From Alistipes timonensis JC136 (GTDB lineage Bacteria > Bacteroidota > Bacteroidia > Bacteroidales > Rikenellaceae), in contig NZ_FNRI01000006.1 in assembly GCF_900107675.1 (NCBI RefSeq), positions 161,761 to 193,760 of the forward strand: a DNA stretch of 32,000 bases. Direction: 5' to 3'. Positions within the stretch are counted from its first letter, which is position 1. Every line of letters begins with the position of its first letter. The translations under genes and the position numbers were made by a program. Below are positions 1-17,921 of this stretch, one piece after another. The notes beneath the pieces are model-generated. The model worked only from the letters and a program-made list of their open reading frames with translations. It was not told the DNA's origin and did no database searches.

Positions 1-1442
1 AACTCGTCGTAGGTCAGCGAGGTCCGGGCGCCGTTCCACATTTTGACCGACAGCGGCGCGACGGCGTCGAAAATGCGGTGGTGTACGTCCTGGACGCTGA
101 TGCCGTTGCCGGCATGGTCGTTCCAGAGCGCGAACAGACCGCCTTTGAGCCGCGGGTCCGCCGGGTCGAAGGTTTGATTGCCGACGTTGGCCGGAGTCCA
201 GCTCTCATAGAGCGTTTTGGTGTCGAGGTAGTCGTGGTAGTAACCTGCGGCGGGGACAATGTAGACCTGATCGTCGGGGACGCTCAGGATGTCGTATCCC
301 AGCGCGTACATCTCTTTCGGGTCGGCATAACCGTTGTACCAGCAGTTCATCAGGATTCCGTCCGATTTGACCGGGGTGGCGCCCTTGGCGTGGGTCAGCG
401 CGCCCCAGAGCATCGGCTCCTTGCCGAACGACTCGACGTAACGGAGGTAGCGGTCGGTGAATGCGCGGAACTGTTCGACCACCAGCGAATCCTTGTTGCT
501 GTATTCGTCGGTGCCGATGTGCACCTTTTTGCCGACGAACACGGGATCGTCGCCCGAGAGGTATTCGCGCCAGAGGGCGTCGAGGAACTCATAGCCCTCG
601 GGATTGAAGAGGTCCATGTGGTCCTTGCCGTAGATGTCGCTTCCCAGCGAGGGCTTGTAGTGCGAGAAAGAGAGGGTGTGCGCCGGAGTGTCGATCTCGG
701 GGATGATGGTGATGCCCTGCCGGAGCGCCTCTTTCTGAAACTCGCGGAAGGCTTCCTGGGTGTAATGACCGTCTTTCGACGCCAGTCCGGGGAACGTTTT
801 GCTCTCGATCCGGAAGCCCGACGGGGTTTTGGTCCAGTCGTTTTCGAAGAGCTCCTGCATGCCGTTGTCGTTGAGGTGGACCTGGAACGTGTTCATCTTG
901 TAGTAGGCGAGCACTTTGACGAGGTCTTCGAGGTAGGAGAGGTCGAAATATTTGCGGGCCACGTCCAGCATGAAACCGCGCATCGGGAAAGCGGGGTAGT
1001 CGACGGCCGACCCGCAGGGCAGGGCGGTCGACTGCTCGGCCATTTGGAGGAGCGTTTTGGTGGCCCAGATCGCTCCCAGCGGCTCGTTGGCGCATACCCT
1101 GACGTTCCTGCCGATCGAGAGGGCATAGCCTTCGGCGTTGTCGGTGCCGCACTTGCCGGGGGTGACGGCCAGCGAGATGACGCCGGATTTCTGCCGGTTC
1201 CGCTTCGCCGGAACCACCTGCGGGGCAAAGCCCAGCAGTTCTTGGCATTCGGCGGCGAAACGTTCGGCGACGGCTGCCGTGGCCTCGTCATGGGTGATGA
1301 CGGTGGCGGAAGAGAGCGTGAAATGGCCGTTGCCGCCCTCCCAGCTGACGAGCTCGGGGATGACGAACGGTTTGGGATTCCCGGCCGCAGCCGCCAGTGT
1401 GCAGAACAGCGCGCAGAGGATTAAAGCAAATTTTCGTTGCAT
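1..1442 (-). CDS. GH20-type beta-N-acetylhexosaminidase, secreted; the 3' end runs off the window start
   Basis: Absent from the supplied ORF track because the frame is open at position 1. Manual minus-strand translation from the ATG at 1442-1440 gives MQRKFALILCALFCTLAAAAGNPKPFVIPELVSWEGGNGHF (signal peptide). It continues with RGFMLDVARKYF, MNTFQVHLNDN, IIPEIDTPAHT and VHIGTDEY (Asp-Glu pair), which resemble GH20 catalytic-domain motifs. There is no stop down to position 3. The start overlaps the 3' end of the upstream epimerase gene by 22 nt. Confidence 0.8.
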   Translation of the reverse strand, partial: MQRKFALILCALFCTLAAAAGNPKPFVIPELVSWEGGNGHFTLSSATVITHDEATAAVAERFAAECQELLGFAPQVVPAKRNRQKSGVISLAVTPGKCGTDNAEGYALSIGRNVRVCANEPLGAIWATKTLLQMAEQSTALPCGSAVDYPAFPMRGFMLDVARKYFDLSYLEDLVKVLAYYKMNTFQVHLNDNGMQELFENDWTKTPSGFRIESKTFPGLASKDGHYTQEAFREFQKEALRQGITIIPEIDTPAHTLSFSHYKPSLGSDIYGKDHMDLFNPEGYEFLDALWREYLSGDDPVFVGKKVHIGTDEYSNKDSLVVEQFRAFTDRYLRYVESFGKEPMLWGALTHAKGATPVKSDGILMNCWYNGYADPKEMYALGYDILSVPDDQVYIVPAAGYYHDYLDTKTLYESWTPANVGNQTFDPADPRLKGGLFALWNDHAGNGISVQDVHHRIFDAVAPLSVKMWNGARTSLTYDE

Positions 1443-2647
1443 AAGGTTTCGGTTTTAGGGGTTGGGGTAATCAGGGTTGCCTTGCGGTCGATCCGTTCGA
1501 GGGTCTGCCAGCATTGGTACAACCCGCGCGGGACGTGGAAGCAGCCTTTCCACTTGCCGCCCTTGAGGTCGATCAGCACCTCGCCCCGGCGGTTGAGGTA
1601 GCCGAACCATTCGGGGTATTCCGGGTCTTTGAAGTGATCCCACGTGTAGGCGTGGACCCGTTCGAACCACTCCAGACACCGCCGGTCGCCGGTCAGCTCA
1701 TAGCCTTTGAGCAGCGAGATGAGCGTCTCGATATGCACCCACCACAGTTTTTGGTCCCACTCCAGCTGGAGCGGCGGGCAGCCCTTGCGGTCCATGAAAT
1801 AGAAGATGCCGCCGTAGGTCGTGTCCCAGCCGTATTCGACCATCCGCAGGGTGATGTTTTTGGCCTGTTCGATCAGCTCGGGGCGTTTGAGCCGCCGGCC
1901 GATGTCCATGACGAACCACATCGCCTCGATGGCATGGCCGGGGTTGACCGAGCGGCCCTCGAACGTGTCCGAGAGCTGGTTGTCGGCCGTGAGGTTCTCG
2001 ACCACGATGCCCAGTTCGGGGCGGTAGAAGACCTCCATCACCTGATGCACGCACTCCTCCATGCGGGCGTGGAGGATCTCTTCGCTCAGGAGGTGCTCGA
2101 TCTCCATGGCCAGGTTGCAGAGGATCATCGGCAGTGCGAAGCCTTTAAGCGTCCGGCTGCCGGGTGACGCTTTGCTCCATTTGCCCTTAGGGTTGGAGGC
2201 TTTGGAGAGGATGATTTCGAAAGTCCGCCGGGCGATGTCGGCGTAGCGGGGATTTCCGGTCGCCTTGTTCAACTGCCCGAAGGCCATGGTGGCGAAGGTG
2301 TAGGAGAAGATGTTGTAGGGCTCCACCAGCGGTGCGCCCCGGCGGTCGAGGGCGAAATACCAGTTGAGGGCGCCGTCGTGGCCGTGCTTCTCGAGGAACG
2401 CGGCGCCGTGGATGGCGGCGTCGAGCCACTCTTTGCGCGGCTCCACATTATTATATAGCATCGAAAAGAGCCAGACTTCCCGCGCCTGAAGCCAGATGAA
2501 TTTGTCGGTATCGTACACGTTGCCTGTGCGGCCGAGGCAGGTGAAATAGCCTCCGCACTCCCGGTCGAGGGAGTGATTCAGCCAGAAAGGTATCACATTT
2601 TCAAATAGTTCCGTCTTGTAAAGCGCAGCCAGCGAGTTGAAATTCAT
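1421..2647 (-). CDS. N-acylglucosamine 2-epimerase (AGE / renin-binding-protein family)
   Basis: 408-aa ORF with no signal peptide. The sequence (FWLNHSLDRECGGYF, DKFIWLQAREVW, NPGHAIEAMWF, WDQKLWWVHIETL, GEVLIDLKGGKWKGCFHVPR) matches the (alpha/alpha)6-barrel AGE family. The exact substrate (ManNAc/GlcNAc versus other aldose-ketose or 2-epimerase activities in this family) cannot be fixed from sequence. Confidence 0.8.
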   Translation of the reverse strand: MNFNSLAALYKTELFENVIPFWLNHSLDRECGGYFTCLGRTGNVYDTDKFIWLQAREVWLFSMLYNNVEPRKEWLDAAIHGAAFLEKHGHDGALNWYFALDRRGAPLVEPYNIFSYTFATMAFGQLNKATGNPRYADIARRTFEIILSKASNPKGKWSKASPGSRTLKGFALPMILCNLAMEIEHLLSEEILHARMEECVHQVMEVFYRPELGIVVENLTADNQLSDTFEGRSVNPGHAIEAMWFVMDIGRRLKRPELIEQAKNITLRMVEYGWDTTYGGIFYFMDRKGCPPLQLEWDQKLWWVHIETLISLLKGYELTGDRRCLEWFERVHAYTWDHFKDPEYPEWFGYLNRRGEVLIDLKGGKWKGCFHVPRGLYQCWQTLERIDRKATLITPTPKTETLCNENLL

Positions 2648-2733
2648 GGTTAGTCGGTGTTAATTTCCAACAAAATAAGTAATAAAATTCAACATTATCA
2701 ATTTTTAGAGTAAAAATAATTATTAAAATATTC

Positions 2734-2763
2734 TTTGTAGGTAAATTATTTTATTTATATTTG
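2734..2763 (+). promoter_or_regulatory. Bacteroidota sigma-A type promoter (-33 TTTG at 2734-2737, -7 TATATTTG at 2756-2763)
   Basis: Exact TAnnTTTG box 27 nt upstream of the ATG at 2790, with a TTTG 18 nt upstream of it. It lies inside a strongly AT-rich divergent intergenic region. Confidence 0.5.
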
Positions 2764-2789
2764 TGCAGACAATAATTGTTTTGGGTATC

Positions 2790-3864
2790 ATGAAATTGAA
2801 CAGAACTATTTTTCTGACTGTCGCCGCCGCTATTATAATAGGTGCGTTCGCCGGATGCAGTTCCGACGACGACGGAGGCGTGCAAATTCCCCCCCCCCTC
2901 CACGGGCGGCGATCTTGTTGATGCTCCTTATGAGGACCCTGAGGGTCTGACCATTACCAAACGGTACGACGGCTATCCCGAGGGAGTCTACGTCCGTTCA
3001 TTCGAAATGCCGCTTTCCGGCGGCCAGAAGATCGTCGGCTACTATGCCGTGCTGGATTTCGTCGAAAATCCCGACCTTCAGTTTCTTCCCCGATTCTCCG
3101 CGGGAAAAAAGCCTACCAAATATTTCAGCGACCACCTCGCCGAAGGTGCGGACAATCCGTTCCTGGCGGTGAACGGCGGTTTCTTCGTCATGACGGCGCC
3201 GCCCCGCTCCTACTGTCTGCTGGTCAGCGACGGTGTGGTGAACTCGCGCCCCGATCCCTACGAGTGGACCGGGCCTTCGTCGTCGCCTTACCAGTTTTTC
3301 CCCGTGCGCGGAGCCATGGGCCGCATGGCCGACGGCAAGTTTGAAACGGCATGGGTGTATTGTGTCGCTGACGATGCGCAGCGTCCCTATGCGTTCCCTT
3401 CGCCGCTGGACAATGACGAGCGCATTCCCTCCTTCATGCCTTCCGCACCGACCTCGAAAACCCCGGGCGCCGAGCTCTGGGAGCCGCAGCAGGCCATCGG
3501 TGCCGGTCCGATGCTCGTCAGGGACAGCCTGAACGTGGCGGAGGATTCCTATTACCGGGAGGTGCTTCACTATATGGGGCAGGGGATCAACGGCATGGGA
3601 CGCCGCCCCCGCACGGCGCTCGGAACCACCCGTTCGCAGCGCCGGATGGTGGTCGTCGTCTGTAACGGCGACAAGGTGCAGTCGAGCGCCGGAATCACGC
3701 TTCCCGAGCTGGGCGACCTGTTCCTGCGATTCGGATGCGTGATGGCCGTGAACCTCGACGGAGGCGGTTCCTCGGCCTTCGTGGGACGCGAGGGGACCCT
3801 GCTGAACGGATTGCCGGCGGAGCGGACCATGCCGACGGCGGTGATTTTCGCCGAGAAGAAGTGA
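2790..3864 (+). CDS. Phosphodiester glycosidase family (NAGPA / DUF2233-like) lipoprotein; reading frame interrupted at a C10 tract
   Basis: The ATG at 2790 encodes MKLNRTIFLTVAAAIIIGAFAGCSSDDDGG (a classic SPII lipobox). That frame stops at 2919-2921. The long ORF 2842-3864 (GTG start, +1 frame) carries AVNGGFF, AIGAGPMLV, PRTALGTT and VNLDGGGSS, which are typical of the phosphodiester glycosidase (uncovering-enzyme-like) family. A C9 tract would fuse the two frames into about 357 aa. Confidence 0.75.
2889..2898 (+). repeat. Homopolymeric C10 tract at the signal-peptide / mature-domain junction
   Basis: Counted directly: ...caaatt CCCCCCCCCC tccacg. It is the point at which the two reading frames of the 2790-3864 gene diverge. 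Confidence 0.9.
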
Positions 3865-3895
3865 TTGTTAACCTTAAAACCATGCAATAATCCAA

Positions 3896-5113
3896 ATGAA
3901 ACCGAACAACCCTGCCGGCATTTCCGGACTGATGTGCAAACTGCTGTTGCTGTTCGTGCTTTGCATCACAGCCTGCAAGGGTGAGGAGACAAAGGGCGTC
4001 ACTCCCGAAGGACCCTCCACCGACGAGCCCGTACCCTATGGGACGGCCTGTATTTCCGACCTGGCGCTGATTTACGGCGGCGGCCATCACCGACAGGTCG
4101 TGTGGAACGAGGCGAGCTTCGGGCCGCACGTGGTCTACACCGATCGAAACGACAACAAGTACTGGCTGTTCGACTCGTTCCTGCTGATCGAGTTCACGCT
4201 GGGCAAAGGCGGGCAGACTACGAACCAGATCTTCGCCACGGGTTATTACGGGCTTCCGGCGCGGAAGGCCGAGTGGCAGGAGTTGCTGGACTACTATTTT
4301 ACGAAAGACGTGAGCGTCGATGCCCTGGACAAGACCGTCGGCAAGCAGATCGGGCAGATCGGACGCCCGGCCTACAAGCGGCAGGTGGTGCTGACGCTTC
4401 CCGAGCCGATCGTGGGCGGCGCCGGATCGAATTATCCGACCCTCGCAAAGGATTACTGGGGCGTGGTGGAAGGCCGGAAGCTGGATTTCACCCGTCCGGC
4501 AGACCGGCTGACGGCCTGCAAATGGTACATTGACAAAGCCTGCGAGATGTTCGATGCCGGTGGTTATGAGCATGTGGAGCTGGCGGGTTTCTACTGGGTC
4601 GCCGAGGAGATGTACCACTCGTCGGGCATCATCGAGGGCGTGGCCGAATACCTTCATTCGAAAGGGCTGCGGTTCGAGTGGATTCCCTATTGGAAAGGCG
4701 AGAAGGACTGGCAGGGCAACGATCCCGACTATTTCACCTGGAAAGATTACGGGTTTGACCAGGCTTATCTCCAGCCCAACTATTTCTTCAACGAGTCGGT
4801 GCCGGCCAGCCGGTTGACGGATGCCGTAAAAGTAATCAACAAGTACGACCTGGGTTACGAGGTGGAGTTCGACGAGAAGGCTATCGAGAGTCTGGGCGGA
4901 ACCAAGCGGTCGCGGCTGTACGACTACATGAAGGCTTTTAAGGAGAGCGGCGTCTATGCGAAACAGCCGTTGGCCTACTACATGAGCGAGAATGCGTTCT
5001 GCCAGCTTTCCGAGGCTGCGCTAAGCGTCGACCGCAAGACTTTCGACGACCTTTGTACGTTTATCATCGCTCACCAGCAGGCCTACCTGAACGAAAAGAA
5101 AAAGACGAAATAA
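3896..5113 (+). CDS. Uncharacterised lipoprotein, probably DUF4855 family
   Basis: 405-aa ORF with a lipobox (LFVLCITAC). The family assignment is from memory of similar Bacteroides proteins and is low confidence. The gene is tightly packed, with the next gene starting 2 nt after its stop. Confidence 0.7.
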   Translation: MKPNNPAGISGLMCKLLLLFVLCITACKGEETKGVTPEGPSTDEPVPYGTACISDLALIYGGGHHRQVVWNEASFGPHVVYTDRNDNKYWLFDSFLLIEFTLGKGGQTTNQIFATGYYGLPARKAEWQELLDYYFTKDVSVDALDKTVGKQIGQIGRPAYKRQVVLTLPEPIVGGAGSNYPTLAKDYWGVVEGRKLDFTRPADRLTACKWYIDKACEMFDAGGYEHVELAGFYWVAEEMYHSSGIIEGVAEYLHSKGLRFEWIPYWKGEKDWQGNDPDYFTWKDYGFDQAYLQPNYFFNESVPASRLTDAVKVINKYDLGYEVEFDEKAIESLGGTKRSRLYDYMKAFKESGVYAKQPLAYYMSENAFCQLSEAALSVDRKTFDDLCTFIIAHQQAYLNEKKKTK

Positions 5114-5114
5114 G

Positions 5115-6149
5115 ATGAAAAAGAACCTTTTGCTGAAAACTTTTGCGGCGCTGCTCCTGCTGCTGACGACGACTGCGGCCCAGGCTGCGGAACCGATGCT
5201 GGCATTGGAGAAATACACGGTGCCCGTCGGGGTGCCGGGTGCGGCGGTGGGACGTTTCTCCACGGAGGTGCCTGTCGTGCTCGCCGACGATCCCTCGGGG
5301 CTCTTCGAGATCGCGGACAACCGGCTGAAACTCCGCAAAAAAGCGGTCGTGACGGCTTCGTCGCCCATCCTGTTCGAGATCGAGGTCGCATGCGGCGATG
5401 CGCAGAAGCGGTTCACCATTGTCAAAGACGAGTTTATCCGCAACAAGGTAGTGGCCCACCGCGGCGCATGGAAAGGCTATGGGTATCACCAGAATTCGCG
5501 CCATTCGCTGCGCAAGGCGATCGAACTGGGATGCGAAGCCTCGGAGTTCGATGCCTGGCTCACGAAGGACAAGTACATCGCCATCAATCATGATTACGAG
5601 TACGACGGCATGATCGTCGAGCTGTCGAAACTGGCCGACATGCGGCGCGTGATTCTGGAGCAGGGCGAAGTGATGGCGACGCTGGACGAGTATCTGGATA
5701 TCATCCGCGGGCAGAACCGGACGCGGCTGGTGCTGGAGCTGAAATCCATGCCGACGAACAAAATAGGCCTCGAACTGGCCGACGCCGCCGTGGCGATGGT
5801 GCACAAGATGGGCGCACAGGCATGGGTCGACTACATCAGCTTCGACTACGAGGTGCTGAAACGGGTGCGTGCGCTCGATCCCACGGCGCACATCGCCTAC
5901 CTGGGAGCCGTCGTGCCGATGGATCAGCAGAAGATCGAGGGTATGAACGGCATTGACTACCATTTTTCGCAGTTCGACAACATGCCGCGGCTCTACGACC
6001 GGGCGCGGATGCTGGGGCTGACGATCAACGTCTGGACGGTCAACGACCCGAAGATCATGGAGCGCATGCTCGACATGGGGGTCGATTTCATCACCACGGA
6101 CGAGCCCGCGATGCTGCTGGAGATGATTGAAAAACGGAACGAACGATAG
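5115..6149 (+). CDS. Glycerophosphodiester phosphodiesterase (GDPD) family protein, secreted
   Basis: 344-aa ORF with a signal peptide (LLLLTTTAAQA) and an extra N-terminal domain of about 110 aa. The GDPD signature follows: VVAHRGAW...NSRHSLRKAIELGCEASEFDAWLTKDKYIAINHD, with a C-terminal INVWTVND. Confidence 0.85.
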   Translation: MKKNLLLKTFAALLLLLTTTAAQAAEPMLALEKYTVPVGVPGAAVGRFSTEVPVVLADDPSGLFEIADNRLKLRKKAVVTASSPILFEIEVACGDAQKRFTIVKDEFIRNKVVAHRGAWKGYGYHQNSRHSLRKAIELGCEASEFDAWLTKDKYIAINHDYEYDGMIVELSKLADMRRVILEQGEVMATLDEYLDIIRGQNRTRLVLELKSMPTNKIGLELADAAVAMVHKMGAQAWVDYISFDYEVLKRVRALDPTAHIAYLGAVVPMDQQKIEGMNGIDYHFSQFDNMPRLYDRARMLGLTINVWTVNDPKIMERMLDMGVDFITTDEPAMLLEMIEKRNER

Positions 6150-6194
6150 TAACACGTAACAAGTAATACAACAGCCAAATAACCTTAAAAAAGA

Positions 6195-7694: not shown

Positions 7695-7708
7695 CCTCCT
7701 TTCGATTG

Positions 7709-7749: not shown

Positions 7750-7789
7750 CAGTTAATCGCCGCTGTTAAAGGCTGAGACAAATTTTTGT

Positions 7790-10700: not shown

Positions 10701-10840
10701 GCGTCTATGTCACCGGGCAAAACCTCTTCACGCTCTCCGATGCTTTCGAAGGGTTCGATCCGGAGGGTAACAACTCTTACGGTTCCGAGTTCTATCCGAT
10801 CATGCGTGTATTTACCGTCGGTCTTGATTTACGCTTCTGA
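7790..10840 (+). CDS. susC: SusC/RagA family TonB-dependent outer-membrane transporter
   Basis: 1016-aa ORF with a signal peptide and a carboxypeptidase-regulatory-like domain (LTGKVVSSAGEPVIGATIVVEGS). It has plug motifs (IRGIGSINSSTSPLILIDGVEG, ISALKDASAAIYGSRASNGVILVTTKRG) and a C-terminal beta-barrel ending in F. There is no STN (anti-sigma signalling) extension. Confidence 0.95.
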   Translation: MKKLALLILLLVGCVSLHAQTASKPASKKLTLTGKVVSSAGEPVIGATIVVEGSKPMIATAAGVDGSYSITLPSGSVSLTVSSIGYNSRTVPVNNRTRLDITLETEDRQIDDVVVVGYQVQKKVTLTGSVSAISGKDIVKRDAPNLSSALQGLMPGVSVVQGSGRPGADGGQITIRGIGSINSSTSPLILIDGVEGDINQVDMNSVESISALKDASAAIYGSRASNGVILVTTKRGKSETPQFTYTGYYAITAPTEMPTPVSGAEYMEYMNIAALNSGQSIRFDPAYIAEYKRYGADNWTTFDTDWKKEMLKKSSYMHRHALSISGKGNICSYYIDGSYQFQDGLIENNNFSRKTFRVNTDMNLAKWATLSVDFSAFGTSETVPSISTPEKLIGEALTYTPTLAGINRDGTWGEGLNGYNPIAILKVGGTQRNDVTGFNPKANLTVKLPYNLEFKTLFSYRYQHDNQKIVTKPYDTYTQGMLKYTYPDTTPDGKVSMYWKKNQQIQFNASFSYKNTFRENHNFSALAGVQLETLLSQSLSGSREGFFIPGYDEMGVGSKTQTSSSARDEWAMLSYYSVLNYNYKEKYLIELTGRLDGSSRFMPDNRWGFFPGGSVAYRISQEPFWQSVEKYVSSLKIRASYAHFGNQWLNDYYPFASQMNTNLWNGYFFNGEQFLGSIQEKLFNADISWETSKQANIGLDMGFLGDKLTLTVDLFNRKISDLIQVPTIPTFVVYNAPYFNIGKMQARGYDISISYRGSSKNGNWRYSFTGNFSDAKSTILEVADIADTNDITALRPGELRNAIRGWKTDGFYRDQADIDASPAFNNDKTNLKPGDVKYRDKDGNGVIDYNDVYTLGDGSPRYLYSLTANISWKNFDLSVFIQGVGERMKRYNGAGIVPFDNGRSMFESQTDYWREDNLNAKFPRLSINNKNNYYSSDVWVKNAGYVRLKNVSLSYRIPKKVISKLRLQSARVYVTGQNLFTLSDAFEGFDPEGNNSYGSEFYPIMRVFTVGLDLRF

Positions 10841-10842
10841 TT

Positions 10843-12690
10843 ATGAAAAAGTTCATTAAATATCCGATCCTGCTGCTCTGCCTGCTGTCGATGACATCCT
10901 GCGCGGAGGACTTCCTGAACCGCTACCCGTCGAAACCCACCACGGGAGACTTCTTCAAAAGCGAGGAGGCCGCCAAACTGGCGCTGACGGGAATCTACAA
11001 CGGCCTCTACCTCTGGTCGAGCGGCGCCGCCATCGGCTATATGCTCCCCGGGCCCGCCTCTTACGACGCCCTGACCGGGTTGGTGATGACCCGCGACGAG
11101 AACGAAACGCTCGGTTCCGGCCGGATCTGGCCCGACGACAGCACGATTCTCGCCTACTGGAAATCGTGGTATGTCATCATCCAGCGTGCCAACACCATGC
11201 TGGTCAATGCCGATCCCTCGCAGTCCGGGAACATGGCGCGTCTTACGGCCGAAGCCCGTGTGCTCCGGGCCATGGCTTACTACTACCTGATCTCGATGTT
11301 CGGCGACGTGCCCTTCTTTACCGCGCCGCCGGCGTTCGAGGATTTCAAATGTCAGCGCACGTCGAAGGTCACGATCCTCGACTTCGTACTCAGGGAGTTG
11401 GATGAGGCGGCCGCGATCCTTCCCGAATGGACCGCTTCCGAGCGGGGCCGGGTCGACAAGGCTGCGGCCTACGGCATCCTGTCGCGCGCCGCGCTGATGG
11501 GCGGCAGTTTCAACTACAACAATGATGCGGCTCATTACTTTAAGATCGCCGCCGATGCGGCCGAGAAGGTGATCGGCAAGCGCGGATTGTGCAAGGACTT
11601 CGGATCGCTCTTCACCACGACGGGACAGGCGCAGCCCGATGCCCGCGATGAGCTCATTCTGGAAATTGCATTCTACAACACGGGAGAGGCGAAGTTTCAT
11701 TATGTGGGCTATACCGAGACGAGCCGTTTTGTCGGGCAGACCAGCCGTTATCCGACCCAGACGCTCTTCGATACCTTCGAGTGCATCGACGGCAAACGGA
11801 TCGACGAGTCGCCGCTCTACGATCCCACCGACCCGAAAAAGAACCGCGACCCGCGGCTCCGGTCCTCGATCTTCATCACGGGCGACACCATTACGGTTAA
11901 TACGGGCAGCGGCAAGGTGAAGGCGATCCTCAATGCCTACGAGGGTGATTCGAACGATAAGGAGAATTATCGTAAGACGTTGAAATACAATTATGATACG
12001 CAAAAGTGGGAGAAGACGGACAACCTCGATTTCACCGATCCGTCGGCATTCACCAGCTTCGCCAATGCGGGCAAAGGCTATATGTGCGGCAAGTTCCAGC
12101 GCGACAGTACGGAGAACATCAGCCAGTCGACCGTCAACTTCCCGATCCTGCGTTATGCGGAGGTGCTGCTGAACTTCGCCGAAGCGAAGATCGAGCTCTG
12201 GGCCCTGGGCGCCGAAGCCGAGGACGACCGCATCTATACGGCGATCAACGAGGTCCGCAACCGCGTCGGCATGCCCGACGTGTCGAGCGACCGGGTCGGC
12301 AATGTGGAGAAGATGCGCCAGTTGGTGCGCCGCGAGCGCAAGGTGGAACTCGCATTCGAGGGGCTTCACCTGATCGACCTGCGCCGCTGGGACATCGGCG
12401 ACCTGGAGAACTCGCAGCCGGTCTACGGCATGCCCGAAGAGAAATACGGCGGGTTCAAGGCCCCGTATCCTTCGGTCCAAAAGCTGCCGGTGTTCAATAA
12501 GACCGCCCGCCACGACCTGAACGACATTGCGACCTATCCGGATGCCGAAATCCGCCTCGTGCGCGACAAGAACCGCAAATGGGAGTCGCATTACCGCCTG
12601 TGGCCCATTCCGCAGTCGGAGGTCAGCAAGACCGGCATGTCGCAGAATCCCGGATACGCCGGAGGGGCGACCGATACGTCGAATCAGTGA
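10843..12690 (+). CDS. susD: SusD/RagB family nutrient-binding outer-membrane lipoprotein
   Basis: 615-aa ORF starting 3 nt after the susC stop. It has lipobox LSMTSC followed by AEDFLNRYP, the canonical SusD N-terminus. TPR-like helices follow (RVLRAMAYYYLISMFGDVPF, LRYAEVLLNFAEA, RERKVELAFEGLHLIDLRRW). Confidence 0.95.
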   Translation: MKKFIKYPILLLCLLSMTSCAEDFLNRYPSKPTTGDFFKSEEAAKLALTGIYNGLYLWSSGAAIGYMLPGPASYDALTGLVMTRDENETLGSGRIWPDDSTILAYWKSWYVIIQRANTMLVNADPSQSGNMARLTAEARVLRAMAYYYLISMFGDVPFFTAPPAFEDFKCQRTSKVTILDFVLRELDEAAAILPEWTASERGRVDKAAAYGILSRAALMGGSFNYNNDAAHYFKIAADAAEKVIGKRGLCKDFGSLFTTTGQAQPDARDELILEIAFYNTGEAKFHYVGYTETSRFVGQTSRYPTQTLFDTFECIDGKRIDESPLYDPTDPKKNRDPRLRSSIFITGDTITVNTGSGKVKAILNAYEGDSNDKENYRKTLKYNYDTQKWEKTDNLDFTDPSAFTSFANAGKGYMCGKFQRDSTENISQSTVNFPILRYAEVLLNFAEAKIELWALGAEAEDDRIYTAINEVRNRVGMPDVSSDRVGNVEKMRQLVRRERKVELAFEGLHLIDLRRWDIGDLENSQPVYGMPEEKYGGFKAPYPSVQKLPVFNKTARHDLNDIATYPDAEIRLVRDKNRKWESHYRLWPIPQSEVSKTGMSQNPGYAGGATDTSNQ

Positions 12691-12713
12691 CGGATCGCCG
12701 TCGATCGATAATT

Positions 12714-12758
12714 GGCAAGAGGAGTTTTTGACAGGAAAATTCCTCTTGCCTGATTTTC
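12714..12758 (+). terminator. Hairpin / partial terminator downstream of susD
   Basis: GGCAAGAGGA (12714-12723) pairs perfectly with TCCTCTTGCC (12741-12750) and is followed by TGATTTTC. Confidence 0.5.
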
Positions 12759-12778
12759 AAATGCAACAGATTAATCCT

Positions 12779-14977
12779 ATGAAGTCATTTTTTGCAATCC
12801 TCGCGCTGCTGGCCGCGGTCGTGTCGTTGCCGGCAGGGTGCGGCCGCCCGGACGCCGACGTCGCCGCGGCACAGGGATTGGCCGGACGCATCGTCCCCGG
12901 CTACGCTTCGAAGATACGCTTCGAGAAGCTGGCTCCCGCGGCGGATTCCACGGACCGGTTCGAACTGGAGACGGTCGGCCGAAAGCTGGTCGTCCGGGGC
13001 AACAACGCCAACTCGATGGCCGTGGGCCTGAACCATTTCCTGAAATATTACGCCCGCACGAGCGTCTCGTGGTTTGCCGGCCAGCCGGTCGAGGTGCCCG
13101 CGGAGATGCCCGTGGTGGCGGAAAAGGTCGCGCACAGCGCTCTGCTTGACGACCGCTTCTTTTTGAATTACTGCACGTTCGGATATACGATGGTGTGGTG
13201 GCAGTGGCGCGACTGGGAGCGGCTGATCGACTGGATGGCGCTCAACGGCGTGACCCTTCCGCTGGCGATCACGGGGCAGGAGGCCGTGTGGGCGCGGGTG
13301 TGGCAGAGACTCGGGCTCACCGACGAGCAGGTCCGCAGCTATTTCACCGGTCCGGCCCATCTGCCGTGGCACCGGATGTCGAATCTCGACTACTGGCAGT
13401 CGCCGCTGCCCCAGAGCTGGCTCGACGCGCAGGTGGAGCTGCAGAAGCGGATCGTGGCCCGTGAGCGGGAGCTGAACATGAAACCCGTGCTTCCGGCCTT
13501 CGCCGGACATGTCCCCGCGGAGCTGGGTGAAATTTACCCGGAGGCCAAAATCTCGCGCATGAGCAAATGGGGCGGTTTCGAGGATCGTTACCGCAGCCAT
13601 TTCCTCGATCCGCTCGATCCGCTCTTCGCGCGGATTCAGCGGGAGTTCCTCGCCGAGCAGACCGCACTCTTCGGCACGGACCATATTTACGGTGCCGATC
13701 CGTTCAACGAGGTCGATCCGCCGAGCTGGGAACCGGAGTTCCTCGCCCGGGTCTCCCGGACGATTTACGACACGATGACCGAAGCCGATCCCGAGGCCGA
13801 ATGGCTCCAGATGACGTGGCTGTTCTACCTCGACCGCGACAAGTGGCACGACGACCGGATCGAAGCGTTCGTCACGGCCGTACCGCAGGACAAGATGCTG
13901 TTGCTGGACTATTATTGCGAGAATACGGAGGTGTGGCGCCAGACCCATAGCTACCACGGGCAGCCCTATTTCTGGTGCTATCTGGGCAATTTCGGCGGCA
14001 ACACGATGCTGGTGGGCAATTTCGACGAGGTCTCGAAGCGTATCGACGGAGTGCTGGCCGAAGGCGGGAACAACCTGCGGGGTCTCGGTTCTACGCTCGA
14101 GGGGCTGGATTCGAACCCCTTCATGTACGACTATGTTTTCGAACGTGCGTGGGATTTTCCGGTCGATGACGACCGGTGGTTCGACGCGCTGGCCGACCGT
14201 TACCTGGGGTATGAGGATACGGGCTACCGCCGGGCCTGGGACGCCCTGCGCAAAAATGTCTACATCACCTCTTCGAAATACGGCCACTGTCCGCTGCTGA
14301 ATGCCCGGCCCACGCTGGAGGGCATTCTCACGGGTACCACCGATGCGGAGATCAAATACGACAACGACGAGCTGTTCGAGGTCTGGGCGAAGATGATCGA
14401 CGCCGGGGATTCCGGGCGCGACACCTATCGCTATTGGCTCGTGAATGTCGGCCGGCAGACTTTGGGCAACCTTTTCCTGCCGCTGCGCGACGGGTTCACG
14501 GCGGCTTGCCGGGCGAAGGATCTCGCACGGATGAAGGAGCTGCGGAGCGAAATGCTGGAACTGGCGGCGGACCTCGAGACATTGACGGCGCAGCACGGCG
14601 CCTTCTCGATGCAGAAGTGGATCGACGACTCGCGCTCCTTCGGCACGACTCCCGAAGAGCGGGATTACTACGAGGTGAATGGCCGCACGCTTCTCACGAC
14701 GTGGGGCGACCGGGCGCAGAGCATCAACGACTACGCCAACCGCACGTGGTCGGGGCTGGTGGCGGATTACTACGCCGAGCGCTGGCGGATGTTCCTCGAT
14801 GCGGCGGTCGGAGCCGTCGAAGCGGGGCGGAAGTTCGATGAAGAGGCGATCTTCAACGCCATGGCCGATTTCGAAAAGGAGTTTGCCGGCAGCACGAAGC
14901 CGCTGACGCAGACCCCCGCGGGCGATGTCTGTGAGATCGTCCGGGAGCTTTACCTGAAATACAAACCCGAATCATGA
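12779..14977 (+). CDS. Alpha-N-acetylglucosaminidase (NAGLU-like, GH89), lipoprotein
   Basis: The track ORF begins at 12527, but that extension overlaps the susD 3' end and the hairpin. The ATG at 12779 gives MKSFFAILALLAAVVSLPAGCG (lipobox). The body matches the NAGLU N-terminal, TIM-barrel and C-terminal domains (FLNYCTFGYTMVWWQWRDWERLIDWMALNGVTLPLA, FTGPAHLPWHRMSN, KPVLPAFAGHVP, WCYLGNFGGN). Confidence 0.9.
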   Translation: MKSFFAILALLAAVVSLPAGCGRPDADVAAAQGLAGRIVPGYASKIRFEKLAPAADSTDRFELETVGRKLVVRGNNANSMAVGLNHFLKYYARTSVSWFAGQPVEVPAEMPVVAEKVAHSALLDDRFFLNYCTFGYTMVWWQWRDWERLIDWMALNGVTLPLAITGQEAVWARVWQRLGLTDEQVRSYFTGPAHLPWHRMSNLDYWQSPLPQSWLDAQVELQKRIVARERELNMKPVLPAFAGHVPAELGEIYPEAKISRMSKWGGFEDRYRSHFLDPLDPLFARIQREFLAEQTALFGTDHIYGADPFNEVDPPSWEPEFLARVSRTIYDTMTEADPEAEWLQMTWLFYLDRDKWHDDRIEAFVTAVPQDKMLLLDYYCENTEVWRQTHSYHGQPYFWCYLGNFGGNTMLVGNFDEVSKRIDGVLAEGGNNLRGLGSTLEGLDSNPFMYDYVFERAWDFPVDDDRWFDALADRYLGYEDTGYRRAWDALRKNVYITSSKYGHCPLLNARPTLEGILTGTTDAEIKYDNDELFEVWAKMIDAGDSGRDTYRYWLVNVGRQTLGNLFLPLRDGFTAACRAKDLARMKELRSEMLELAADLETLTAQHGAFSMQKWIDDSRSFGTTPEERDYYEVNGRTLLTTWGDRAQSINDYANRTWSGLVADYYAERWRMFLDAAVGAVEAGRKFDEEAIFNAMADFEKEFAGSTKPLTQTPAGDVCEIVRELYLKYKPES

Positions 14978-16266
14978 AAAAGAGTATTGTTTTTGCCTTG
15001 CTGGCATTGCTGGGCTGCACGCAGTTGTCGGCGCAGGGGAGCGCCCAGACCCCGATGGTCAAAGTGCGCATCACGCCGACGAACGGCTCGTGGGACTACC
15101 GCGTCGGGGAACGGATCAAAATGGCGGTGAGCGTGGAACTGAACGAGCTTCCGCTCCGCGATGTCGCGTTCACCTATGAAGCCGGTCCGGAGCTGGTCGA
15201 ACCGACGGTGACGGGGCAGGCGACGACCAAAGACGGCTCCGTGACGCTGGACCTCGGACGGATGGACAAACCCGGATTTTTCAACCTCGATGTCCGCGTC
15301 AGGGTGAACGGGGTGGACTACCGTCAGTGGAAAACCGTCGCCGTGGACAAGGAGCGCATCGAACCGACGGTGACGATGCCGGCCGATTTCCAGTCCTACT
15401 GGCAGTCGCAGCTCGACGCCGATGCGGCCATGCCCCTCCGGCCCCGGATGGAGCTGCTTCCCGAGCGCTGCACCGACAGGACCGATGTCTACGAGGTGAG
15501 CTATCTCTACACGCCCCAGGGAGGGCGCTTCTACGGCATTCTGTGCGTGCCGAAAGCCGAGGGGAAATACCCGGCCGTCCTGCGCGTTCCCGGAGCGGGC
15601 GTGCGGAGCTATCAGGGGAGCGCCTGGCAGGCCGACAAGGGCTTCATAACGCTCGATGTCGGCATTCACGGCATTCCGGTCACGCTCGAACCGGTCGTCT
15701 ACGAACGGCTCTTTGCGGGGATTCTCAACCGCTATTACACGATGAACCTCGAAAGCCGCGACGATTACTATTACAACCGGGTGATCCGGGGCTGCAAACG
15801 GGCCGTCGACCTTATCTTCACACTCGACAAGTTCAACGGCAGGATAGGCGTTCAGGGCAGCAGCCAGGGCGGCGCCCTGACGGTGATGGTGGCGGCGCTC
15901 GATCCGCGGGTGTGCTGCGCGGCGGCGGCCCTGCCGGCGATGAGCGACATGACGGGGTATCTTCACGGCCGTGCCGGAGGATGGCCCCAGATTTTGAAAA
16001 ATCCCGCGGAGTGCATCTATAACCGGAAGGAGATCGTCAATACGCTGTTGTATTACGACACGGTCAATTTCGCGCGTCTGCTGAAAATCCCGATCTATTA
16101 CATGCTGAGTTACAACGACAAGGTGTGCCCTCCGACCTCGACGTTCTCGGTTTACAATGCGACTGCGGCGCCCAAGCGGATGCAGCTCACCCACGAAACC
16201 GGCCACTGGTACTATCCCGAGCAGGCCGGGCAGATGGATACTTATATCGAAAAGGCATTGCAGTGA
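14974..16266 (+). CDS. CE7-type acetyl esterase (acetylxylan esterase / cephalosporin-C deacetylase family) with N-terminal Ig-like domain
   Basis: 430-aa ORF whose ATGA start overlaps the GH89 stop. It has a signal peptide, a GSSQGG nucleophile elbow (the GxSQGG hallmark of CE7), and later YNDKVCP (Asp) and THETGHW (His). Confidence 0.85.
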   Translation: MKKSIVFALLALLGCTQLSAQGSAQTPMVKVRITPTNGSWDYRVGERIKMAVSVELNELPLRDVAFTYEAGPELVEPTVTGQATTKDGSVTLDLGRMDKPGFFNLDVRVRVNGVDYRQWKTVAVDKERIEPTVTMPADFQSYWQSQLDADAAMPLRPRMELLPERCTDRTDVYEVSYLYTPQGGRFYGILCVPKAEGKYPAVLRVPGAGVRSYQGSAWQADKGFITLDVGIHGIPVTLEPVVYERLFAGILNRYYTMNLESRDDYYYNRVIRGCKRAVDLIFTLDKFNGRIGVQGSSQGGALTVMVAALDPRVCCAAAALPAMSDMTGYLHGRAGGWPQILKNPAECIYNRKEIVNTLLYYDTVNFARLLKIPIYYMLSYNDKVCPPTSTFSVYNATAAPKRMQLTHETGHWYYPEQAGQMDTYIEKALQ

Positions 16267-16309: not shown

Positions 16310-16318
16310 CGGTGAATG

Positions 16319-17888: not shown

Positions 17889-17921
17889 GGTATTCAAAGC
17901 CTGTTTGCAATGTCTTTTGGA

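Follow-up and report, generated by a model that had tools for sequence, protein, structure and literature searches.

What kind of glycan is served by this locus of Alistipes timonensis JC136? The window, that is, the whole 32,000-nucleotide stretch analyzed, had been described in an earlier note as carrying a polysaccharide utilization locus (PUL) with two phosphodiester-directed enzyme families, alpha- and beta-N-acetylhexosaminidases, and a CE7 esterase. All 10 gene products named there were present at or near the positions assigned to them, and the two phosphodiester-directed families look intact, catalytic residues included. The gene order is identical in Alistipes sp. Zagget8 (L001; 89% nucleotide identity), and a Dysgonomonas MAG (L011) and GCA_031554235.1 (L083) keep largely the same gene set, with 43-60% protein identity for the genes compared. 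The clustering conserved in these three loci exceeds chance. Because all the listed genes are present and the cluster is conserved, the locus is a genuine Alistipes PUL and a functional unit. On the strength of the domains and gene fusions observed, the catalytic motifs found intact, the folds predicted, and the synteny conserved, we propose, with a probability of roughly 45%, that its substrate is a phosphodiester-containing amino-sugar glycopolymer. The features are as follows.

1..1442, minus strand: GH20 beta-N-acetylhexosaminidase with signal peptide (PF00728, 101 bits; PF02838, 71 bits)
1421..2647, minus strand: cytoplasmic N-acyl-D-glucosamine 2-epimerase, AGE (PF07221, E = 9.5e-82)
2648..2789, no strand: AT-rich intergenic region separating the divergent AGE/GH20 unit and PUL operon (sequence read)
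2790..3864, plus strand: NAGPA-like phosphodiester glycosidase, predicted surface lipoprotein, frameshifted (PF09992, 83 bits; cutoff, 25)
2889..2898, plus strand: poly-C tract (C10), on/off frameshift site in the NAGPA-like gene (strain comparison)
3896..5113, plus strand: DUF4855 lipoprotein (PF16147, E = 1.8e-84)
5115..6149, plus strand: secreted phosphodiesterase of the GDPD family, N-terminal domain ~100 aa (PF03009, 71.6 bits)
6195..7694, plus strand: DUF5018 surface lipoprotein, CSDDDSE (PF16410, E = 2.7e-29)
7790..10840, plus strand: SusC-type TonB-dependent transporter (TIGR04056, 874 bits; cutoff, 368)
10843..12690, plus strand: SusD-family lipoprotein (PF07980, E = 4.3e-45; PF14322, E = 1.5e-20)
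12714..12750, plus strand: hairpin between susD and GH89, with a 16-bp stem followed by a T-rich tail
12779..14977, plus strand: GH89 alpha-N-acetylglucosaminidase lipoprotein (PF05089, PF12972, PF12971)
14974..16266, plus strand: CE7-type (AXE1) esterase with signal peptide and an N-terminal extension of ~130 aa (PF05448, E = 5e-33)
17905-18942: AraC-family HTH gene, inside the window and outside the range of the PUL

The NAGPA-like enzyme of the earlier note was confirmed as to family, but it is out of frame in the window. Its gene begins at ATG 2790 with the lipoprotein signal MKLNRTIFLTVAAAIIIGAFAGC-SSDDD, and because of the C10 tract the catalytic ORF (2842-3864) is read in a different frame from this signal peptide. 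A C9 version yields a restored 357-aa protein that is 100% identical to P0241 over 357 aa. The C10 form was found in the window, L080, L081, and a lineage of 90% identity (L090-L092). The C9 form, which is in frame, was found in L001 and in L086-L089, which match the window at 99.2-99.3% nucleotide identity. The AF2 model (pLDDT 84.6) matched only NAGPA/DUF2233 structures (E = 3e-15 to 6e-10). Residues T275, D323GGGS327, and R345 align to the guinea-pig NAGPA motifs RTAIG, NLDGGGS, and CPRR and are all invariant across the subfamily. Mapped through these motifs, they would correspond to T260, D286GGGS290, and R316 of human NAGPA, and E257 tentatively to E226. In the human enzyme, T260, D286-S290, and R316 bind phosphate and GlcNAc (PMC13474241). 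In sister PULs with a window-type NAGPA (L093-L095; 36-45% identity), its partners are MetallophosN/C phosphoesterases, GDSL/CE2 esterases, GH89, ROK, DUF5018, and GHL10-DUF4985, and the sole characterized GHL10 member is the peptidoglycan lytic transglycosylase Cwp19 (PMC6016235).

The GDPD carries an SPI-type signal peptide, MKKNLLLKTFAALLLLLTTTAAQA, and keeps the H/R/E/D/H/E/K catalytic set, with H115, R116, E144, D146, H159, E208, and K210 invariant. Its best PDB matches were 7WW4, a GDPD-beta-1,3(4)-glucanase fusion (E = 1e-57), and 3NO3. The teichoicase GlpQ (5T91) is a distant relative (E = 8.5e-4), which counts against the proposed substrate. A further point against it is that the GDPD subfamily may be a general periplasmic glycerophosphodiesterase, since close homologues (43-44% identity) in B. 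coprosuis and Chitinophaga horti are solitary and lie beside housekeeping genes.

The two lipoproteins that had been listed without a function are indeed lipoproteins, and they belong to the Pfam families DUF4855 and DUF5018. The AF2 model of the DUF4855 protein (pLDDT 84.2) is a TIM barrel, whose best Foldseek matches were GH18 class III chitinases (E = 4e-7, TM 0.42-0.58), followed by BT_0435 and GH20. It is thus predicted to be a glycosidase-like (beta/alpha)8 barrel, and E170, E237, E322, and E324 are invariant. No solved structure was found among its sequence relatives. In L003, L013, L047, L061, and L076, DUF4855 follows SusC-SusD-DUF1735/F5_8C, in the slot that is occupied by GH18 in N-glycan PULs. 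Given the barrel and this position, the backbone enzyme that the earlier note had found missing is probably present, and DUF4855 is the signature enzyme of the PUL family and a candidate backbone cleaver. DUF4855 and GDPD are joined on a single polypeptide in L047 (9920-11695) and L076 (10016-11788), which represent two Alistipes species, and a third cluster, P0385, has the same fusion. In L058, from a Muribaculaceae MAG, a GDPD-Exo_endo_phos fusion adjoins DUF4855 genes arranged in tandem. Other fusions link DUF4855 to GH3, GH43, and, weakly, GH16; together with the GDPD-glucanase fusion 7WW4, they point to beta-glucans rather than teichoic acids. The phosphodiester glycopolymer that we favor gains independent support from the DUF4855-GDPD and GDPD-phosphoesterase fusions, the NAGPA neighbors, the preserved catalytic residues of NAGPA and GDPD, and the phosphoesterases and GHL10 of the sister PULs, and the theme of the earlier note recurs in these fusions and neighborhoods.

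The locus belongs to a widespread, often ROK-associated, and hitherto uncharacterized PUL family centered on a DUF4855 enzyme together with SusC/SusD and the surface protein DUF5018. In line with the earlier note, the literature searched yielded no characterized PUL with such a gene set. L083 reads ROK, then DUF4855-GDPD-AGE-DUF5018-SusC-SusD-NAGPA-FAD_ox, and the Dysgonomonas locus contains ROK, FAD_ox, DUF4434, MFS, AGE, DUF4855, CE7, SusC, SusD, GDPD, and DUF5018. DUF5018 was the most frequent neighbor of DUF4855 (45 of the 79 DUF4855 loci in the all-loci count). Among the 46 DUF4855 loci with full flanks, NAGPA occurred in 15 (33%), GDPD in 5 (11%), and either in 18, as raw counts. GDPD is therefore an accessory rather than a core function, and since GH89 was also infrequent (9% of full-length loci), the combination in the window represents a single variant within the family. 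As many as five DUF4855 paralogues lie in tandem at one locus (L047), which fits a structurally variable substrate class.

The GH20 enzyme is present as listed in the earlier note, but its minus-strand gene is incomplete here: of 651 aa, the window encodes the N-terminal 480, beginning with MQRKFALILCALFCTLAAAAG, and the rest runs off the left edge. The full gene is in L080. A plus-strand ORF at 78-1424 without a family match was rejected as spurious antisense of GH20. The CE7 gene overlaps the GH89 stop codon by 4 nt, and its product has the nucleophile motif GSSQGG and matched cephalosporin C deacetylase best (E = 5e-26), along with acetyl xylan esterases. The AGE is an NCBIfam NF052547 equivalog (714 bits; cutoff, 600) in which no signal peptide was found, bearing out its cytoplasmic assignment; it recurs in 10 of the 46 full-length loci at 57-74% identity. 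AGE interconverts ManNAc and GlcNAc, and its recurrence favors the proposed polymer: bacteria build ManNAc into their glycans, among them some capsules and the linkage unit of teichoic acids, whereas it is not known as a residue of mammalian, plant, or fungal glycans. B. thetaiotaomicron is not known to have a sialate lyase, yet it keeps the cassette with AGE. In classical wall teichoic acid, ManNAc would be a minor component, which counts against that polymer.

SusC has Plug and CarboxypepD_reg domains only, and no STN domain was detected, as had been noted. The hairpin after susD is an attenuator- or terminator-like intra-operon element. The control of the locus, left unsettled by the earlier note, is largely answered by a ROK/NagC-like regulator (399 aa, wHTH + ROK) that lies ~0.5 kb to the left of the window, alongside DUF4434, an MFS transporter of the sugar-porter type, and a periplasmic FAD oxidoreductase. 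The AraC-family gene is probably unrelated to the PUL. The region 2648..2789 presumably holds the promoter and operator. It has an AT-rich 13-mer, TAAAAATAATTAT, in common with the ROK-DUF4434 intergenic region of L080, and the search for an operator gave nothing statistically convincing.

Taken together, the substrate is most likely a HexNAc-decorated, O-acylated, and phosphodiester-bridged glycopolymer, most probably from the envelopes of other microbes. For the specific substrate, where the earlier note had offered teichoic acid, a HexNAc-1-P capsule, or a phosphoglycosylated host glycan, we infer as leading candidates teichoic-acid-type polyol-phosphate or sugar-1-phosphate polymers with a ManNAc-GlcNAc-1-phosphate linkage unit; a teichoic-acid-type wall polymer is our leading guess, although a doubtful one. 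With localization predicted from signal peptides and the order of steps proposed here, the polymer would be bound at the cell surface by SusD and DUF5018, presumed to be a surface glycan-binding protein. With its poly-C tract in frame, the NAGPA-like lipoprotein would cut an alpha-GlcNAc-1-phosphate diester at the glycosidic C1-O bond, uncapping the phosphate or freeing the chain from a GlcNAc-1-P anchor, and DUF4855 would cut the chain to pieces that SusC can import. In the periplasm, O-acyl groups would be taken off by the CE7 esterase and alpha- and beta-linked HexNAc stripped by GH89 and GH20. The exposed glycerophospho- or polyol-phosphodiester bonds would then be hydrolyzed by GDPD, and DUF4434 and the FAD oxidoreductase may act on further linkages. 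Amino sugars would enter the cell via the MFS transporter, ManNAc would be converted to GlcNAc by the epimerase, and the ROK repressor may sense an amino-sugar product.

Compared with known systems, GH89 is of the human-NAGLU-like type (477 bits to 4XWH against 289 bits to CpGH89). It is gapped at 'STwgHS' of CpGH89, chain index 660, which we take to be W685, assuming that the chain starts at residue 26. The mucin-specific clostridial CpGH89 has a Trp685 loop, required to recognize GlcNAc-alpha-1,4-Gal (PMC8225759), whereas the window GH89 does not. This argues against gastric mucin caps, as does the B. thetaiotaomicron GH89 BT0438, which cuts pNP-alpha-GlcNAc and not these caps (bioRxiv 10.64898/2026.03.26.714468). 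Host glycans as inducers or substrates would count against a phosphodiester polymer, and they are suggested by the response of BT0438 to colonic mucin O-glycans and keratan sulfate, by the BT0439 SusC in supernatants on galacto-oligosaccharides/human milk oligosaccharides (bioRxiv 10.64898/2026.03.26.714468; PMC5238430), and by the paralogue BT3590 (52% identity to the window GH89), which cuts heparosan oligosaccharides (PMC8225759). The core ROK-DUF4855-SusC-SusD-DUF5018-GHL10 spans marine-sediment Prolixibacteraceae, termite-gut Bacteroidales, Dysgonomonas, and mammalian-gut Alistipes/Bacteroides/Parabacteroides, so the substrate is not host-specific. The earlier note had looked to a syntenic PUL acting on a non-phosphorylated substrate as evidence against its reading; for the syntenic PUL of B. 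thetaiotaomicron no substrate is known (PMC6989115), and BT0438, its GH89, spares the gastric mucin caps. BT0433 'NanR' is a regulator of the same kind as the ROK protein adjacent to the window (PMC3878776).

The locus is a genuine and conserved PUL whose phosphodiester-cleaving enzymes have a functional link to a glycosidase-like protein, DUF4855, and it is a Sus-like system of known type with unusual enzymology. Our main reading, to which we give a probability of about 0.45, is that its substrate is a phosphodiester-bridged amino-sugar polymer. Domain searches recovered all of the gene products that the earlier note had listed. Ten genes occupy the leftmost 16.3 kb of the window, and the right border is formed by tRNA-Met, followed by rpmE, tuf, nusG, rplKAJL, and rpoBC.

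Features of the locus (window coordinates, strand, product)
3-1442, minus: GH20 β-N-acetylhexosaminidase, start at 1442 and continuing beyond the left edge (PF00728, 101 bits; PF02838, 71 bits)
1421-2647, minus: AGE, cytoplasmic N-acyl-D-glucosamine 2-epimerase (NCBIfam equivalog, 714 bits vs cutoff 600)
2790/2842-3864, plus: NAGPA-like protein (PF09992)
3896-5113, plus: DUF4855 protein
5115-6149, plus: GDPD (PF03009)
6195-7694, plus: DUF5018 protein
7790-10840, plus: SusC (TIGR04056, 874 bits vs cutoff 368; TIGR04057 signature; no STN domain)
10843-12690, plus: SusD (PF07980 and PF14322)
12714-12750: hairpin between susD and the GH89 gene, 16-bp stem and T-rich tail
12779-14977, plus: GH89 (PF12971, PF05089, PF12972)
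14974-16266, plus: CE7-type esterase (PF05448, E = 5e-33)
16318-16392, opposite strand: tRNA-Met

The susC and susD genes are separated by 2 nt, the adjacent pair expected of a Sus-like PUL, and the eight plus-strand genes from 2790 to 16266 have gaps of -4 to 95 nt, in line with the co-oriented secreted enzymes of a PUL. A signal peptide or lipobox was found on each of GH89, CE7, NAGPA, and GDPD. Acidic stretches after the cysteine suggest that the NAGPA-like (C-SSDDD), DUF5018 (C-SDDDSE), and DUF4855 (C-KGEE) proteins are surface lipoproteins, and the signal sequences of GDPD, GH20, GH89, and CE7 suggest a periplasmic location. The GH20 protein contains both the catalytic PF00728 and the GH20b PF02838 domains; it is cut by the window edge and is complete (651 aa) in L080, a longer sister contig. 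A plus-strand ORF at 78-1424 was rejected as the antisense of this real minus-strand gene, having no family match and a Val/Gly/Arg-rich translation. The hairpin at 12714-12750 may be an intra-operon attenuator or RNA-processing site. Gene order is kept in the related Alistipes sp. Zagget8 (L001) at 89% nucleotide identity, and largely the same gene set occurs again in a Dysgonomonas MAG (L011) and in GCA_031554235.1 (L083). To the right of the locus, an AraC-family HTH regulator gene (17905-18942) lies 1.6 kb downstream of the PUL, past tRNA-Met and rpmE. Two further ORFs were located between the PUL and the tRNA/tuf cluster, one of 290 aa (17016-17888; coiled-coil-like, with a sub-threshold GAS match only) and one of 219 aa without a Pfam family (18986-19645).

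The earlier note had found no regulator to account for control of the locus. This gap is probably filled for the most part by L080 (99.35% identity over 14.9 kb), which carries the locus further left and encodes an adjacent candidate regulator, a ROK/NagC-like protein of 399 aa with winged-helix (wHTH) and ROK domains. Comparison of k-mers between the two divergent intergenic regions of L080 yielded only AT-rich matches and no consensus for a shared ROK operator, and palindrome counts over 14 ROK-upstream regions likewise gave no consensus. The region L080:1-5605 comprises the ROK regulator, a DUF4434 protein, a sugar-porter MFS transporter, and a periplasmic FAD oxidoreductase (PF12831). The DUF4434 protein matched 4H41 with 637 bits; 4H41 is its orthologue BT_0435, annotated as a 'putative alpha-L-fucosidase'. 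This ROK-DUF4434-MFS-FAD oxidoreductase cassette was found again with AGE, whole or in part, in L011, L083, and a further locus (L061), and ROK genes were present in 9 of 46 full-length DUF4855 loci.

The GH89 protein contains all three domains of its family (PF12971, E = 2.5e-20; PF05089, E = 4e-141; PF12972, E = 4e-67), and it scored 477 bits to human NAGLU versus 289 bits to clostridial CpGH89. In the alignment to 2VC9 it was gapped at the 'wg' insert at chain index 660, which we take to be W685, and the Trp loop of the mucin-cap enzyme CpGH89 was absent. The Trp685 loop recognizes GlcNAc-α-1,4-Gal (PMC8225759), and BT0438, a GH89 of Bacteroides thetaiotaomicron, cleaves only pNP-α-GlcNAc and not gastric mucin caps (bioRxiv 10.64898/2026.03.26.714468). 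A mucin-cap role is thus argued against, since the window GH89 is NAGLU-like and without the Trp685 loop, and BT0438 is inactive on these caps. The CE7 protein matched 1L7A, 1ODS, and 6AGQ at E of about 5e-26, with GSSQGG as its GxSQG-type motif. The conserved ManNAc/GlcNAc epimerase points to bacterial, not host or plant, glycans.

These results bear on an alternative that we consider unlikely, namely that the locus is a host-glycan PUL. It would act on α/β-GlcNAc-terminated host glycoconjugates as an arm of a NanR-type sialic-acid/GlcNAc regulon, with GDPD and NAGPA as minor accessory or hitch-hiking genes; mucin O-glycans, heparan-sulfate/heparosan-like chains, keratan sulfate, and N-glycans with GlcNAc-1-P-6-Man are the proposed targets. 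The B. thetaiotaomicron counterpart of the locus speaks for it, and its response to host-derived glycans counts against our phosphodiester reading (PMC5238430; bioRxiv 10.64898/2026.03.26.714468). Its ROK regulator BT0433 is predicted to be 'NanR', for use of sialic acid and GlcNAc (PMC3878776), and the counterpart as a whole adjoins a sialidase and N-glycan cluster. Activation of BT0438 occurs on keratan sulfate and on O-glycans from colonic mucin (bioRxiv 10.64898/2026.03.26.714468). BT_0439, which has been called 'implicated in host glycans', was detected with galacto-oligosaccharides as well as human milk oligosaccharides (PMC5238430), and BT0439-0443 have been described as an operon induced in vivo (PMC6989115). 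In addition, BT3590, 52% identical to the window GH89, acts on heparosan oligosaccharides by cleaving GlcNAc-α-1,4-GlcA (PMC8225759), which again weighs against the phosphodiester reading, and DUF1735/F5_8C proteins, typical of N-glycan PULs, stand beside DUF4855 in five loci. However, the locus lacks a sialidase, galactosidase, fucosidase, mannosidase, sulfatase, lyase, or uronidase, its GH89 has no mucin-recognition loop, and the same PUL core is present in marine-sediment and termite-gut Bacteroidota. The induction by host glycans could also reflect a ROK repressor sensing released GlcNAc. A classical host N-glycan or mucin PUL was set aside, because the expected exo-glycosidase families are absent except for GH20 and GH89.

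The NAGPA-like protein matched PF09992 with 83.2 bits (cutoff 25). T275, D323GGGS327, and R345 were invariant across 20 members of its subfamily, and they align to the guinea-pig NAGPA motifs RTAIG, NLDGGGS, and CPRR; a conserved Glu is also kept. We map them to T260, D286-S290, and R316 of human NAGPA, which form the DGGGS loop and the phosphate-binding Thr and Arg (PMC13474241). All Foldseek matches at E <= 1e-9 to its AF2 model (pLDDT 84.6) were NAGPA/DUF2233 structures with the three-subdomain α/β fold (3OHG, 6PKU/6PKY/6PKG/6PKI, 6U11, 5H3K, and 6OZD). The catalytic machinery is intact at the level of sequence motifs and is predicted to act on GlcNAc-α-1-phosphate diesters.

In the window, the NAGPA-like gene is frameshifted, the ATG of the signal peptide at 2790 being out of frame with the catalytic ORF at 2842-3864. 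The cause is a C10 run at 2889-2898, 11 codons downstream of the lipobox cysteine, and removal of one C restored a 357-aa protein 100% identical to P0241, a protein in public assemblies. Thus, an intact exportable ORF was found in the C9 alleles and not in the C10 window. The in-frame C9 form is carried by four independent assemblies (99.2-99.3% nucleotide identity with the window) and by Alistipes sp. Zagget8 (89%), and C10 occurs in the window, in two other assemblies at 99.3-99.4% nucleotide identity, and again in a 90%-identical lineage. Such a distribution resembles on/off switching of a surface enzyme by strand slippage (phase variation), as the tract lies in the first mature residues, where a change in length flips the downstream frame, and C10 recurs at 90% identity. 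The difference may otherwise be an assembly error at the homopolymer. Phase variation in Bacteroidales is usually ascribed to invertible promoters, and a putative poly-C switch in the gene of a surface enzyme deserves notice in its own right.

A second homopolymer-length difference was observed in the operon. The DUF4855 protein is intact in the window (405 aa). In the sister contigs L080-L082, the T4 run of the window (AGGCTTTTAAGG; about 4936-4940 in the window and 11041-11046 in L080) is lengthened to T5, which cuts the protein down to 348 aa and leaves a 43-aa remnant. The two frameshifts together could be taken for a decaying or silent locus, but we give this hardly any credence. The other genes of the locus are all intact, strains at 99% identity carry in-frame C9 alleles, the tract position and the recurrence of C10 at 90% identity fit switching, and the gene order and set are conserved (L001, L011, L083).

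Homologues of the window-type NAGPA (36-45% identity) were also found in three sister PULs (L093-L095), where their partners are MetallophosN/C phosphoesterases, GDSL/CE2 esterases, GH89, ROK, DUF5018, and GHL10-DUF4985. This arrangement is mirrored by BT0446-0453 in B. thetaiotaomicron (PMC10434189). A glycosidase leaving a phosphomonoester, with a phosphoesterase adjacent to it, makes a coherent two-step removal of a sugar-1-phosphate bridge. The only characterized GHL10 member, Cwp19, is a peptidoglycan lytic transglycosylase (PMC6016235), so GHL10 in the sister PULs is a pointer to bacterial cell walls. The contexts of two distant NAGPA homologues (L096, L097) offered nothing informative on Gram-positive wall loci. 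One sister PUL with NAGPA and GHL10 also encodes a fusion of a NagB-like (Glucosamine_iso) domain with a PIG-L deacetylase (L094:2578-4521).

The GDPD protein scored 71.6 bits to PF03009 (cutoff 23.6). H115, R116, E144, D146, H159, E208, and K210, which include both histidines and the metal ligands, were invariant in 20 homologues, and it is by these residues an intact predicted glycerophosphodiester phosphodiesterase. DUF4855-GDPD fusion proteins of about 590 aa were found in two Alistipes species (L047:9920-11695 and L076:10016-11788) and in a third cluster (P0385), and in a Muribaculaceae MAG a GDPD-Exo_endo_phos fusion adjoins tandem DUF4855 genes (L058:13413-14900). As far as such gene fusions can show, the phosphodiesterase and the glycosidase-like barrel act on one molecule, whatever the substrate, and such a pairing is unusual chemistry for a PUL. 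These fusions are hard to square with the incidental phosphodiesterase of a host-glycan PUL. Lone GDPD homologues at 43-44% identity (L085:10001-11014 and L084:10001-11038) weigh against our reading, as they lie beside housekeeping genes. Their sites are directly after rpoB-rpoC in Chitinophaga horti and beside rplM/rpsI in Bacteroides coprosuis; the window PUL is also near rpoBC, which we take as coincidence.

The closest solved relative of the GDPD is 7WW4/7WWC (E = 1e-57), with 3NO3 also near. It is an unpublished Pedobacter terrae protein in which a GDPD domain is joined to a β-1,3(4)-glucanase, crystallized with laminarin; here too a phosphodiesterase and a glycanase are linked in Bacteroidota. 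DUF4855 is itself fused to GH3 (P0386), to GH43, and weakly to GH16 (P0378) in other clusters. Both facts count against the phosphodiester-bridged amino-sugar polymer, and the glucanase, the GH3 and GH16 fusions, and a GH3 gene in locus L077 would suit another scheme. In it, DUF4855 and GDPD would attack β-glucans substituted with phosphoglycerol or with other phosphodiester groups, or fungal wall; cyclic or osmoregulated periplasmic glucans and the glucan-mannoprotein junctions of fungal walls are the proposed targets, and the HexNAc-ases would serve chitin or attached glycans. We regard it as highly improbable; the window locus lacks GH16, GH3, GH17, GH30, and GH18, its recognizable glycosidases are all HexNAc-specific, and a cassette of amino-sugar regulator and epimerase does not match such a substrate.

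The absence of a backbone endo-glycanase, as claimed before, now appears doubtful. DUF4855 was modeled by AlphaFold as a (β/α)8 (TIM) barrel (pLDDT 84.2), and the nearest structures to the model, all distant, were GH18 class III chitinases (E = 4e-7, TM 0.42-0.58), BT_0435 (4H41), and GH20. Taken as a candidate glycoside hydrolase, the predicted barrel has weak GH18, GH20, and clan-A neighbors at TM 0.3-0.58. Invariant glutamates (E170, E237, E322/E324) are placed after strands 3, 4, and 7, a modeled layout reminiscent of retaining glycosidases, though not proof of one. In five loci, DUF4855 follows SusC-SusD-(BT_3987-like_N + F5/8C), the slot of the GH18 endoglycosidases in N-glycan PULs. On the barrel model, its structural neighbors, the invariant glutamates, and the GH18 slot, we think that the missing backbone enzyme is probably present in an unrecognized form, with DUF4855 as the candidate. 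When DUF4855 was searched against the PDB, by sequence and by profile, no related solved structure was returned, and hhalign comparisons with DUF4434 and GHL10 alignments were not significant (short stretches, with probabilities of 0.3% and 44%). At E <= 1e-10, a set of 1.84 billion 50%-identity clusters contains 1,156 representatives of the family. One Alistipes PUL contains five tandem DUF4855 paralogues, the last one GDPD-fused (L047:4680-11695), which suggests diversification against a variable substrate.

A DUF4855 profile was run against GTDB, with each species represented by one genome. There were 491 confirmed matches and 79 returned loci, the ORFs of which were clustered and their representatives annotated; merging with iterative profile searches shifts a few families slightly.

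Families in the 79 DUF4855 loci (number of loci)
DUF5018: 43-45
SusC: 38
SusD: 37
DUF6259: 20
NAGPA: 20
Gfo/Idh/MocA oxidoreductases: 19
GH20: 16
AGE: 13-14
NagA: 12
ROK: 10
FAD oxidoreductase: 8
GHL10-DUF4985: 7
GDPD: 6
GH89: 4

In the 46 loci whose flanks are complete, raw co-occurrence counts were 15 for NAGPA (33%), 5 for GDPD (11%), and 18 for either. GDPD and GH89 are accessory, not core, in the DUF4855 family, a further point against the phosphodiester reading. Two contexts recur in the family. One is an operon without SusC/SusD, as in BT3586-3597, and the other consists of true PULs with one to five DUF4855 copies together with SusC, SusD, and DUF5018, often with the cassette ROK / FAD oxidoreductase-DUF4434-MFS-AGE. 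The closest full matches to the window include L083 (ROK / DUF4855-GDPD-AGE-DUF5018-SusC-SusD-NAGPA-FAD oxidoreductase) and L011, in which the CE7 esterase and GDPD are both present. The core ROK-DUF4855-SusC-SusD-DUF5018-GHL10 was found in marine Prolixibacteraceae, termite-gut, and mammalian-gut taxa.

One more alternative concerns inositol-phosphate glycolipid heads, that is, GPI anchors or plant and fungal glycosyl-inositol-phosphoceramides, which we judge improbable. Here GDPD would cut an inositol/glycerol phosphodiester and GH89 would remove α-GlcN(Ac) from inositol or glucuronic acid. GDPD enzymes include glycerophosphoinositol- and GPI-cleaving members, GlcNAc-α-1,4-GlcA is also the core of plant glycosyl-inositol-phosphoceramides, and the Gfo/Idh/MocA oxidoreductases, frequent neighbors of DUF4855, belong to a family that includes inositol dehydrogenases. 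DUF5009 proteins are related to lysosomal α-glucosaminide N-acetyltransferase. Such a protein is encoded in the neighboring B. thetaiotaomicron cluster (PMC10434189), and BT0438 takes only an artificial aglycone, while BT3590 prefers GlcNAc-α-1,4-GlcA (bioRxiv 10.64898/2026.03.26.714468; PMC8225759). However, all of these substrate links come from general background and are putative, the locus has no known α-glucuronidase, mannosidase, or lipid-handling gene, the ManNAc epimerase would have no role, and the NAGPA-type enzyme would have no obvious target. The remaining probability falls to substrates that we have not thought of.

The phosphodiester-glycan reading proposed earlier is partly supported by the conserved PUL, the intact motifs, and the fusions, and the specific substrate is still inferred. 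That the phosphodiester-bridged polymer is of the teichoic-acid or wall-polymer type is a tentative possibility. More doubtful is the proposal that this is the first recognized PUL family for Bacteroidota feeding on phosphodiester-linked wall polymers of other bacteria (teichoic acids, anchored glycopolymers). In such a system, the surface NAGPA, toggled by poly-C slippage, would act on GlcNAc-1-phosphate diesters, either cutting an anchor or removing a cap. The chain would be fragmented by DUF4855, either as a new glycoside-hydrolase family or as a cleaver of sugar-phosphate bonds, and GDPD would serve as a periplasmic teichoicase. In guts, sediments, and soils, the wall polymers of Gram-positive bacteria amount to a very large store of carbon and phosphorus. 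If they are targeted, bacterial necromass, or possibly live competitors, would be a new nutrient niche for Bacteroidota. Functions would follow for the large families DUF4855, DUF5018, DUF4434, and bacterial NAGPA, and the BT0439-0443 PUL, without a named substrate since it was first seen induced in vivo, would receive one. The candidate substrates for this in vivo-induced PUL would be testable.

The literature searched contained no PUL for teichoic acids or any phosphodiester-linked polymer, and no characterization of DUF4855, DUF4434, DUF5018, DUF6259, or a Bacteroides phosphodiester glycosidase. The nearest named system is BT0433-BT0443, and the PUL type has been catalogued but is functionally blank. 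It shares the ROK regulator, DUF4434, GH89, SusC, SusD, and DUF4855 with the window; BT0438 is the GH89, BT0439 SusC, BT0440 SusD, and BT0442 DUF4855 (PMC10434189). The gene order differs, as GH89 comes before SusC in B. thetaiotaomicron and after SusD in the window. The operon BT3586-BT3597 (L015) comprises a GH2-like protein, GH20, DUF6259, fn3-NAGPA, DUF4855, the GH89 BT3590, MFS, NagA (BT3588), NagB-like BT3587, and Gfo oxidoreductases. Like the window, it has the NAGPA-DUF4855-GH89 trio with GH20, and its setting is one of amino-sugar catabolism; mucin and GlcNAc induce BT3587 and BT3588 (PMC13634575). However, there is no SusC/SusD within 10 kb, it lacks GDPD, DUF5018, CE7, and AGE, and its NAGPA, which includes an fn3 domain, shares only 27% identity with that of the window.

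Vertebrate NAGPA has the same fold as the window protein (Foldseek E = 1e-11 to 1e-13, TM 0.55-0.67), with the DGGGS loop and the phosphate-binding Thr and Arg in common. In contrast, identity is about 20%, and the bacterial lipoprotein of the window has neither propeptide nor EGF stalk; it may have to accommodate a substituted or internal GlcNAc, whereas vertebrate NAGPA takes off a terminal cap. GlpQ and the phage GP-PDE tail enzymes have a role in teichoic-acid degradation. GlpQ of B. subtilis and S. aureus is an exo-acting teichoicase on poly(glycerol-phosphate) (PMC7086022), and it and the phage enzymes have a common fold, catalytic residues, and extracytoplasmic site with the window GDPD. 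The relationship is only distant (GlpQ 5T91, E = 8.5e-4; phage 9F49/9EUL, E = 3e-7 to 5e-6), and the window GDPD, unlike GlpQ, falls in a subfamily of Bacteroidota enzymes that have an additional N-terminal domain, and 3NO3 and 7WW4 are the nearest solved members of this subfamily. The canonical Bacteroides N-glycan PULs (BT3983-3987) have the order SusC-SusD-DUF1735 glycan-binding protein-GH18, in which DUF4855 takes the place of GH18 in the five related loci, although DUF4855 neither resembles GH18 in sequence nor contains a DxxDxDxE motif. The N-glycan PULs carry DUF1735 proteins and are regulated by an ECF sigma factor or a hybrid two-component sensor, whereas the window locus has DUF5018 and a ROK regulator.
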